Under the pieces are notes generated by a model. It was not told the DNA's origin. It was given only the letters and a program-made list of their open reading frames with translations, and searched no databases. A program made the position numbers and the translations under genes. Shown here in pieces: positions 13-597 of a DNA stretch of 597 nt; within the stretch, counting starts at the first letter, position 1, and every line of letters starts with the position of its first letter. The stretch lies in the NCBI RefSeq assembly GCF_003334255.1, contig NZ_QOWU01000215.1; one strand, 5' to 3'. The stretch comes from Escherichia coli. GTDB lineage: Bacteria > Pseudomonadota > Gammaproteobacteria > Enterobacterales > Enterobacteriaceae.

Positions 13-264
13 ATGGGATACGGTTTACTGGATATTGCGAATCAGTCACGGCGTGAGGCATTACAGGGAATAAGTGACGCCGACAGGCGACGTGAAGAAA
101 TTGAGGCTGCTAACAAGCAGATGGCGGCGCAACAGAAAGCGCAGAACAAGCAGAATATCGGTACGGGCATTGGTACGGGGGCGGCTATGGGCGCTGCCGT
201 TGGTGGTCTCCCCGGTGCGGCTATTGGTGCTGTCATAGGTGGTCTTGCTGGCTCGTTGTTTTAA
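13..264 (+). CDS. Small glycine-zipper protein, 83 aa; predicted single C-terminal membrane helix with a charged N-terminal domain; function unknown (possibly phage or prophage encoded)
   Basis: ATG at 13 follows a strong SD and the ORF ends at TAA 262..264. The track translation ends in ...NIGTGIGTGAAMGAAVGGLPGAAIGAVIGGLAGSLF, with 12 Gly in the last 34 residues and Gly at i, i+4 from G52 to G80. The N-terminal half is rich in R/E/Q/A. Third-position codon usage is GC-biased and enterobacterial-like, consistent with real coding sequence. Confidence 0.8.
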   Translation: MGYGLLDIANQSRREALQGISDADRRREEIEAANKQMAAQQKAQNKQNIGTGIGTGAAMGAAVGGLPGAAIGAVIGGLAGSLF

Positions 265-268
265 GGAG
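263..268 (+). promoter_or_regulatory. Shine-Dalgarno sequence (AAGGAG) for ORF2, overlapping the ORF1 stop codon
   Basis: AAGGAG at 263..268 lies 6 nt upstream of the ATG at 275..277. The ORF1 stop TAA (262..264) is embedded in the SD, the classic arrangement for translational coupling. Confidence 0.65.
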
Positions 269-274
269 TGGTGA

Positions 275-597
275 ATGAGCGGATTTGCACAGGGGTTACT
301 TGCCGGATTCAGCACCGTTGACCAGGCCATGACCCGTCGTAAGGAGCTTGGTCTGCGTGAAGCACAGCTTGCTCAACAACAGAAAAATAACGAGCGCGAT
401 TTTGAATTTGCGCAGTCGCAGTTTGAGCATCGAAAGGAAAATGATCAGCGTACATATGATCTTAATGTCAAAAATGCCGATCGTGAATATGCGCTGAAAG
501 AGAGGGAACACGCCGCAGCGCAGAATTACCGGAATGCGTCGCTGGGTATGGAGCAGCAGCGACTCCGGATGCAGAAATACAACCAGCGACGGCTTGA
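275..597 (+). CDS. Partial CDS, 3' end beyond the window; Q/R/E-rich predicted alpha-helical or coiled-coil protein with an N-terminal GxxxGxxxG segment; function unknown (candidate phage structural, internal virion or ejection-type protein)
   Basis: My translation from ATG 275 is MSGFAQGLLAGFSTVDQAMTRRKELGLREAQLAQQQKNNERDFEFAQSQFEHRKENDQRTYDLNVKNADREYALKEREHAAAQNYRNASLGMEQQRLRMQKYNQRRL, 107 codons with no stop through 595. An in-frame TGA at 272..274 sits immediately upstream, so 275 is the first possible start. It has a strong SD at optimal spacing. The 107 residues contain no Pro, Ile, Cys or Trp, and include 14 Gln and 13 Arg. Confidence 0.75.
   Translation, partial: MSGFAQGLLAGFSTVDQAMTRRKELGLREAQLAQQQKNNERDFEFAQSQFEHRKENDQRTYDLNVKNADREYALKEREHAAAQNYRNASLGMEQQRLRMQKYNQRRL

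Follow-up and report, generated by a model that had tools for sequence, protein, structure and literature searches.

How is the second of two adjacent phage genes translated when the stop codon of the first lies inside the ribosome-binding site of the second? The question is raised by a 597-nucleotide (nt) stretch of Escherichia coli DNA (contig NZ_QOWU01000215.1), which holds one open reading frame, ORF1, and the beginning of another, ORF2; we call the whole stretch the window, and all features placed on it below are on the + strand. An earlier reading of the letters (here, the original prediction) held that the two genes are translationally coupled, co-expressed, and stoichiometrically linked. 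Its coordinates are all correct on direct reading: the ORF1 stop codon TAA (262..264) is embedded in the ORF2 Shine-Dalgarno (SD) sequence AAGGAG (263..268), and the ORF2 start codon ATG (275-277) follows an intergenic gap of 10 nt (265..274). This is a genuine, conserved feature that works as a ribosome-binding site. As to how it works, we lean toward a standard compact junction within a polycistronic phage late mRNA, with ORF2 initiated mainly on its own, at its own SD.

Sequence and reading frames of the junction

The junction reads ...GGC TCG TTG TTT TAA GGAGTGGTGA ATG AGC.... When U262 is included, the ORF2 SD becomes UAAGGAG, with 7 nt of complementarity to the 3' end of 16S rRNA. Its spacer to the ATG is 6 nt, and a second piece complementary to the anti-SD, GGTGA, lies downstream of it at 270-274. 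Among 39 late-gene starts of the same prophage, the duplex energy of this SD (-8.8 kcal/mol) falls in the upper third. ATG 275 is the sole possible start of ORF2, because the in-frame codon at 272-274 is TGA, and the GenBank and Prokaryotic Genome Annotation Pipeline annotations of 933W, PhiR12_3, phi24B, and E. coli G1/2 make identical two-gene calls. Between the ORFs all three frames are closed, by TAA 262 (frame 1), TGA 272 (frame 2), and TGA 276-278 (frame 0). A fusion of ORF1 and ORF2 by programmed frameshifting or readthrough is ruled out by these stops.

Conservation of the junction

Conservation among close relatives was assessed in 49 related loci, which comprise 30 distinct 597-nt sequences that are 78-99.7% identical. 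Exactly the junction string TTTTAAGGAGTGGTGAATG is present at 45 of these loci, the other four carrying the single substitution G270A, and the SD AAGGAG is invariant in all 49. The translation-initiation region of ORF2, 256..294, is the most conserved block of the window: one of its 39 columns varies among the 30 unique sequences, where 39-nt windows average 13.4 variable columns, and third-codon positions elsewhere in the window are 58-59% variable. The conservation of the junction string exceeds chance. The block forms the 5' edge of a larger low-divergence island (256-420); in the segments to either side of this island, 34% and 62% of columns vary (30 sequences, window 13-597). The excess conservation of the block over the remainder of the island, 295-420, is only modest (1/39 versus 17/126 variable columns, the latter being 13.5%).

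More distant relatives came from a search of representative proteins, a first homologue search having returned only near-identical E. coli proteins. In seven such relatives, with ORF2 identities of 29-41%, an ORF encoding a glycine zipper and beginning MGYGL(L/I)D... always precedes the ORF2 homologue, and the gap between the two is 9-12 nt. The upstream gene ends in TGA or TAA and an SD follows immediately, in the form of GAGGTGA, GGGGGGTGA, AGGA, GGAGG, or GGTGATCAC. Judging from these sequences, it is the architecture of stop, SD, and gap that has been kept across the distant relatives, not the sequence itself.

Prophage and transcription context

The window is 100% identical to part of a prophage in the commensal E. 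coli G1/2 (NZ_CP060083.1 1506395-1506991) and 87-97% identical to 933W, VT2-Sakai, phi24B, POCJ13, and other short-tailed phages of the Shiga toxin (Stx) type. One end of the G1/2 prophage is an integrase gene adjacent to tRNA-Arg, and the other is a giant LPD38-domain gene that neighbors yfdC. The prophage is 933W-like and lacks stx, with hsdM/hsdS at the position that stx occupies in Stx phages. The region downstream of Q (L052 25566-29759) contains a Hok/Gef gene, a YXWGXW-repeat gene, and the type I restriction-modification genes hsdM/hsdS; another Hok/Gef gene is situated between lom and the module that contains ORF1 and ORF2 (L003 10206-10346).

ORF1 and ORF2 close a four-gene block, L0130-L0131-ORF1-ORF2, with internal gaps of 2, 9, and 10 nt, and 68 nt after ORF2 comes the homologue of L0134 and phi24B gp47, a protein of ∼2,800 amino acids (aa). 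The original prediction reasoned that the gap leaves no room for a separate promoter and that the genes are therefore co-expressed, and it named a transcription start or terminator between them as evidence that would speak against this. Ten nucleotides are indeed too few for either element. For the window, the promoter and terminator scan predicted neither a sigma-70-like promoter nor an intrinsic terminator, and for the surrounding 3.9 kb, which holds the four-gene block, it gave no promoter on the + strand; Rfam gave no match to the window at E <= 1. The late genes of such lambdoid phages are read from pR' by a Q-modified, terminator-resistant polymerase. Because the scan predicted neither element and the genes lie in a Q-antiterminated late operon, ORF1 and ORF2 can safely be taken to share a single transcript.

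Terminator-like hairpins with T-runs bracket the four-gene block on the + strand (L003 10856-10875 and 13572-13591). The second of these separates the block from the giant LPD38 gene, which starts 18 nt past it. Such flanking hairpins could act as read-through terminators or as mRNA-stability elements, so that the block and the giant gene would be expressed at different levels. A further terminator-like hairpin follows lom (L003 9997-10017).

Initiation of ORF2

What, then, brings ribosomes to the ORF2 start? Gene pairs in E. coli show a small peak at a spacing of +10/11 nt, and 203 pairs lie at +9 to +12 nt, of which 194 of the 201 characterized are polycistronic; those with an intergenic SD belong to a class described as "likely initiated independently" (Huber et al. 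2023, PMC10666635). The ORF1-ORF2 pair has the marks of this class, in that the genes are co-oriented, the gap is 10 nt, and the SD stands at a functional distance. Efficient termination-reinitiation is found at spacings of about -8 to +6 nt, i.e., at overlaps or gaps of a few nt (PMC10666635), and the +10-nt gap lies outside that range. According to Tian and Salis, re-initiation is flat and low at distances (d) of 0 to 25 nt, at about one-third of its value at -4 nt and less than 1% of the upstream flux, and most coupling at such gaps arises when ribosomes help to unfold structures that extend into the upstream ORF.

From these comparisons we infer the mode of initiation and the degree of coupling. 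The main route is most likely the binding of 30S subunits to the strong, well-spaced SD that belongs to ORF2 itself. Ribosomes terminating on ORF1 would cover about 247-275, which would occlude the site transiently and melt local structure, and upstream ribosomes probably add a modest, generic boost through assisted unfolding and some re-initiation. The 10-nt gap would then be exactly one SD with its spacer. The stop codon falls inside the SD because the full complement of the anti-SD, UAAGGAGGU, begins with UAA, so that tight packing of genes yields such an overlap. The arrangement would secure co-expression in time and a compact genome, rather than a fixed 1:1 output.

Several observations weigh against initiation mainly at the SD of ORF2. 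In the fold of the whole window, AUG 275 is mostly paired (unpaired probability 0.21). In addition, 33 of the 49 relatives, those of the 933W type (e.g., L002 8234-8285), have a predicted hairpin of -12.6 to -15.9 kcal/mol (z -0.8 to -2.6) in which 234-257 pairs with 263-285, joining the last codons of ORF1 to the SD, spacer, and AUG of ORF2; because this hairpin masks the SD and AUG, coupling by unfolding would be substantial in the 933W-type alleles. Finally, the conservation of 256-294 includes eight of eight third-codon positions, which implies selection beyond the SD hexamer, and it could reflect a dedicated coupling signal.

It is tempting to read the overlap of stop and SD as strict termination-reinitiation, which we consider unlikely. 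A ribosome would stop at UAA 262-264, slide ∼13 nt, be caught by the SD, and restart at AUG 275, giving the two products in fixed proportions. The very short gap with the stop inside the SD would suit this mechanism, as would the persistence of a 9-12-nt gap across deep divergence; in reporter studies an intergenic SD moderately promotes coupling, and ORF1 and ORF2 would be partners in one virion machine. However, reinitiation is efficient where stop and start overlap (-4/-1) or are a few nt apart, and pairs at +9 to +12 nt have been assigned to independent initiation; the low k_reinitiation at 0-25 nt cited above argues in the same direction. The SD of ORF1 is also stronger than that of ORF2, and strict dependence of ORF2 on ORF1 translation is not expected, because ORF2 has a strong SD of its own.

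Virion copy numbers of homologous pairs also speak against fixed proportions. At the homologous 7 -> 20 junction of P22, the products reach ∼12 copies of gp7 and ∼30 of gp20 per virion (PMC8402733). For the phi24B homologues of ORF1 and ORF2, a virion study (10.64898/2026.04.10.717836) gives 6 versus 179 spectral counts in the whole digest, a soft comparison given that ORF1 yields only ∼4 usable tryptic peptides. With these inequalities the proposed stoichiometric link lacks support, and nothing points to a fixed 1:1 output of ORF1 and ORF2. The broader idea that the two are partners in a complex fares better: a functional partnership is plausible, both genes lying in a conserved ejection module and staying adjacent down to 30% identity.

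Coupling through RNA structure, of the MS2/f1 type, is a second alternative, and a quite improbable one for the window. Here the ORF2 start would be masked by a hairpin in which the SD and AUG pair with the final codons of ORF1, and only ribosomes finishing ORF1 would open it. The hairpin of the 33 loci described above speaks for this, with pairing probabilities of 0.8-0.99 in 597-nt folds, and G270A converts a G-U pair of it to A-U. In the window allele, however, the helix is broken by three substitutions in the 5' arm, A244C, U252C, and U255G (-9.8 kcal/mol, z +0.55), and shuffled sequence folds at least as strongly as the junction (z +0.8 to +1.75), whose SD sits in a loop. A sequestering structure is absent or weak in this allele (z +0.55 to +0.88). 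What is left is a weak predicted helix, 251-257 with 274-280 (251..280), which covers the AUG and is not conserved (-7.7 kcal/mol, z -0.2). A covariation test of the 933W-type hairpin found no compensatory, two-sided changes, and the five pairs that vary do so only by losing their pairing. In distant relatives the start region pairs elsewhere, with unrelated downstream segments.

Could the junction block have been kept for a reason other than translation, either as a homology patch for allele exchange or as the edge of a recently swept segment? Distances between pairs of sequences show no correlation between ORF1 and the N-terminal part of ORF2 (Spearman 0.08; 14 and 9 pairs are discordant), breakpoints in divergence gather at 210-269 and 420-449, and the whole of 256-420 is low in divergence, all of which would fit; such near-independent assortment of ORF1 and ORF2 alleles, with its breakpoints, is normal phage mosaicism. 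We regard this explanation as very doubtful. The SD, its spacing, and the start codon are functional by their position before a 421-aa gene that is itself conserved; the architecture persists in distant relatives although their sequence differs, a constancy that exchange driven by homology would not require; and 256-294 is still more conserved than 295-420.

An ejection-protein module

ORF1 (13..264; 933W L0132; phi24B vb_24B_46, or "gp49") encodes 83 aa, with an N-terminal charged helix region and a C-terminal glycine zipper. It matches phrog_594, a family of unknown function (E 1.7e-42), and its residues 50-82 match Pfam Gly-zipper_YMGG (PF13441; i-Evalue 2.2e-6). The RefSeq label "bacteriocin" was traced to a weak Bacteriocin_IIc match (E 0.0033) to this same glycine zipper. 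The phi24B protein (L064 1291-1542) is 92% identical and is followed by the same junction. The C-terminal 21 residues of ORF1 align to the C terminus of P22 gp7 (hhalign E 5.9e-5, probability 65%), and a PDB sequence search with ORF1 gave no meaningful match. ORF1 is a probable small membrane-inserting ejection protein. In PHROG, it also weakly matches (E 6e-5 to 4e-4) stretches within phage proteins of >1,000 aa, phrog_16692 and phrog_28412, so the unit of coil plus glycine zipper may also occur as a domain within large virion proteins.

The window contains the first 107 codons of ORF2 (275..597), which runs off its end and encodes 421 aa in full (933W L0133; phi24B gp48). ORF2 matches phrog_601 and has no Pfam match even at E <= 10. 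PDB sequence searches with ORF2 and with its family profile returned no meaningful match, and a comparison of the ORF2 family with P22 gp20 and gp16 by hhalign found no similarity. The AlphaFold2 model (predicted local distance difference test score [pLDDT] 77.9, predicted template modeling score [pTM] 0.43) has a helix at residues 4-128, then helical and small beta domains, and Foldseek found nothing like it in the PDB at E <= 0.001. ORF2 is probably an internal virion protein, an ejection protein in the position of gp20/gp15.

Two unusual proteins contain ORF2-like sequence. P0145 (1,386 aa, L060 3001-7161) is a natural fusion in which the N-terminal ∼280 residues are homologous to the ORF2 N terminus (E 9e-17) and residues 911-1380 are 36% identical to residues 136-598 of P22 gp16 (BLASTP, E 2e-77); its C-terminal part gave no match in the Pfam library searched. 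The surroundings of P0145 are a small element that also encodes AlpA and a primase, not a full phage late operon. P0135 (442 aa) seems to join, in frame, the first ∼55 residues of an ORF1 homologue to an entire ORF2 homologue. The glycine zipper is missing from it and its C terminus looks frameshifted; a decayed prophage copy or an error of assembly is the probable explanation.

The order of small membrane protein (ORF1, 83 aa), ORF2 (421 aa), and LPD38 protein (∼2,800 aa) is kept in distant relatives. A review describes the same layout for podovirus ejection operons of the P22 7-20-16 and T7 14-15-16 type, in which genes for a small membrane protein, a mid-size protein, and then a large protein are clustered in the late region. 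The phi24B virion study introduced above reports gp51, gp50, gp48 (the ORF2 homologue), and gp47 in purified virions, gp48 being abundant, with 1,634 spectral counts in total and 179 in the whole digest. It also states that gp47 is absent from the cryo-electron microscopy density maps, and its authors propose gp47 as an ejection protein. A paper on mass spectrometry of enterohemorrhagic E. coli phages (PMC12502783) has no data on the ORF1 and ORF2 proteins. We read the locus as the ejection-protein operon of the 933W-like phage group because of the virion proteomics, the P0145 fusion, the gp7-like tail of ORF1, and the podovirus-type gene layout.

Is the ORF1 product itself packaged? In the phi24B study, gp49 has 13 spectral counts in total, 6 of them in the whole digest, in CsCl-purified virions, and it was set aside as a contaminant owing to its "bacteriocin" annotation. 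This dismissal is probably wrong, as the position, the conservation, and the gp7-like tail of gp49 suggest a true packaged protein. A fuller picture, which we offer tentatively and do not rate as probable, is that ORF1/gp49 is a packaged ejection protein, a minimal, split-off membrane tail of gp7, that would build a trans-envelope DNA conduit together with ORF2 and the LPD38 protein. The string ...GSLF-stop-SD-10 nt-ATG would then be an ancient joint of the P22-like and 933W-like modules, kept for side-by-side synthesis. Comparisons made with the two genes upstream gave only E 0.027 and a probability of 1.8% for the L0130 family against gp7, and nothing for L0131 against gp14.

The upstream junction and other SD-like sites

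The first junction of the window has the same design as the second. The upstream gene, a homologue of 933W L0131 that encodes 148 aa, ends in TAA at 1..3 (the annotated end of its coding sequence, L003 12003, is window position 3). This stop overlaps the ORF1 SD, AAGGAGG (2..8), within TAAGGAGG (1-8), 4 nt before ATG 13, and with T1 the SD becomes a perfect 8-nt UAAGGAGG. Its duplex, at -12.1 kcal/mol, is the strongest of the 39 late-gene starts, and the variants found in relatives retain TAAGG(A/G)GG. Such tight packing, with a stop codon adjoining an SD, recurs at many more junctions of the prophage.

The + strand of the 62-kb prophage has three copies of TAAGGAG, all within one 340-nt stretch (window 1, 262, and 340; L003 12001, 12262, and 12340). 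The third, at 340-346, lies inside ORF2 over codons R-K-E, and TTG 348 after it opens a 49-aa ORF in another frame. This copy is probably there by chance or is an internal SD-like pause site.

Significance and comparison with known systems

The regulatory weight of the junction is small, as it typifies a tight operon in which the ribosome-binding site of the next gene is placed on the stop codon of the previous one. Its value lies more in annotation: the starts of two "hypothetical" genes in hundreds of E. coli and Stx prophages are settled, both genes are assigned to the ejection module, and the tail of ORF1, together with the junction, is linked to P22 gene 7.

In P22, gene 7 is followed by gene 20 (L061 2030-2075) after a gap of 10 nt, and TAA leads into GG(A/G)G, as here; Sf6 genes 11 -> 12 (L062 2210-2265) have the same architecture with a gap of 9 nt. 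The C termini are alike as well, with ...GLLGSLF* in P22 gp7, ...GLLSSLF* in Sf6 gp11, and ...GLAGSLF* in ORF1, and P22 and the window share 18 identical nt, TGGCTCGTTGTTTTAAGG, in a run that extends from the last four codons through the stop into the beginning of the SD. The likeness to P22 and Sf6 extends to a downstream gene of 430-470 aa followed by a large ejection protein, and all of these P22-type products are packaged in the virion. There are also clear differences. P22 gp7 has 229 aa and ORF1 has 83, of which only the last ∼21 residues align, and ORF2 is without detectable similarity to gp20 or gp16. The third gene in P22 encodes the 609-aa gp16 and overlaps by 1 nt, whereas here it encodes a ∼2,800-aa LPD38/MuF_C polyvalent protein and comes after a terminator-like hairpin. 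In epsilon15, gp14 -> gp15 shows TAA-GGAG with a 12-nt gap.

Outside these phages, the junction resembles coupled ATGA and TAATG pairs with overlapping codons, of the trpE-trpD and galT-galK type, in having adjacent, co-oriented genes of one pathway and a terminating ribosome that sits over the next start region. In contrast to those pairs, stop and start here are 10 nt apart, neither overlapping nor within +3 nt of each other. The E. coli pairs spaced at +9 to +12 nt (PMC10666635) have the same features as ORF1-ORF2, namely, genes on the same strand and a 10-nt gap filled by an SD, and no difference from them was found. The junction is of an already known kind, with ordinary spacing and no special regulatory device, and ORF1-ORF2, presumably read as a single transcript, would be a phage-borne member of that E. 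coli group.

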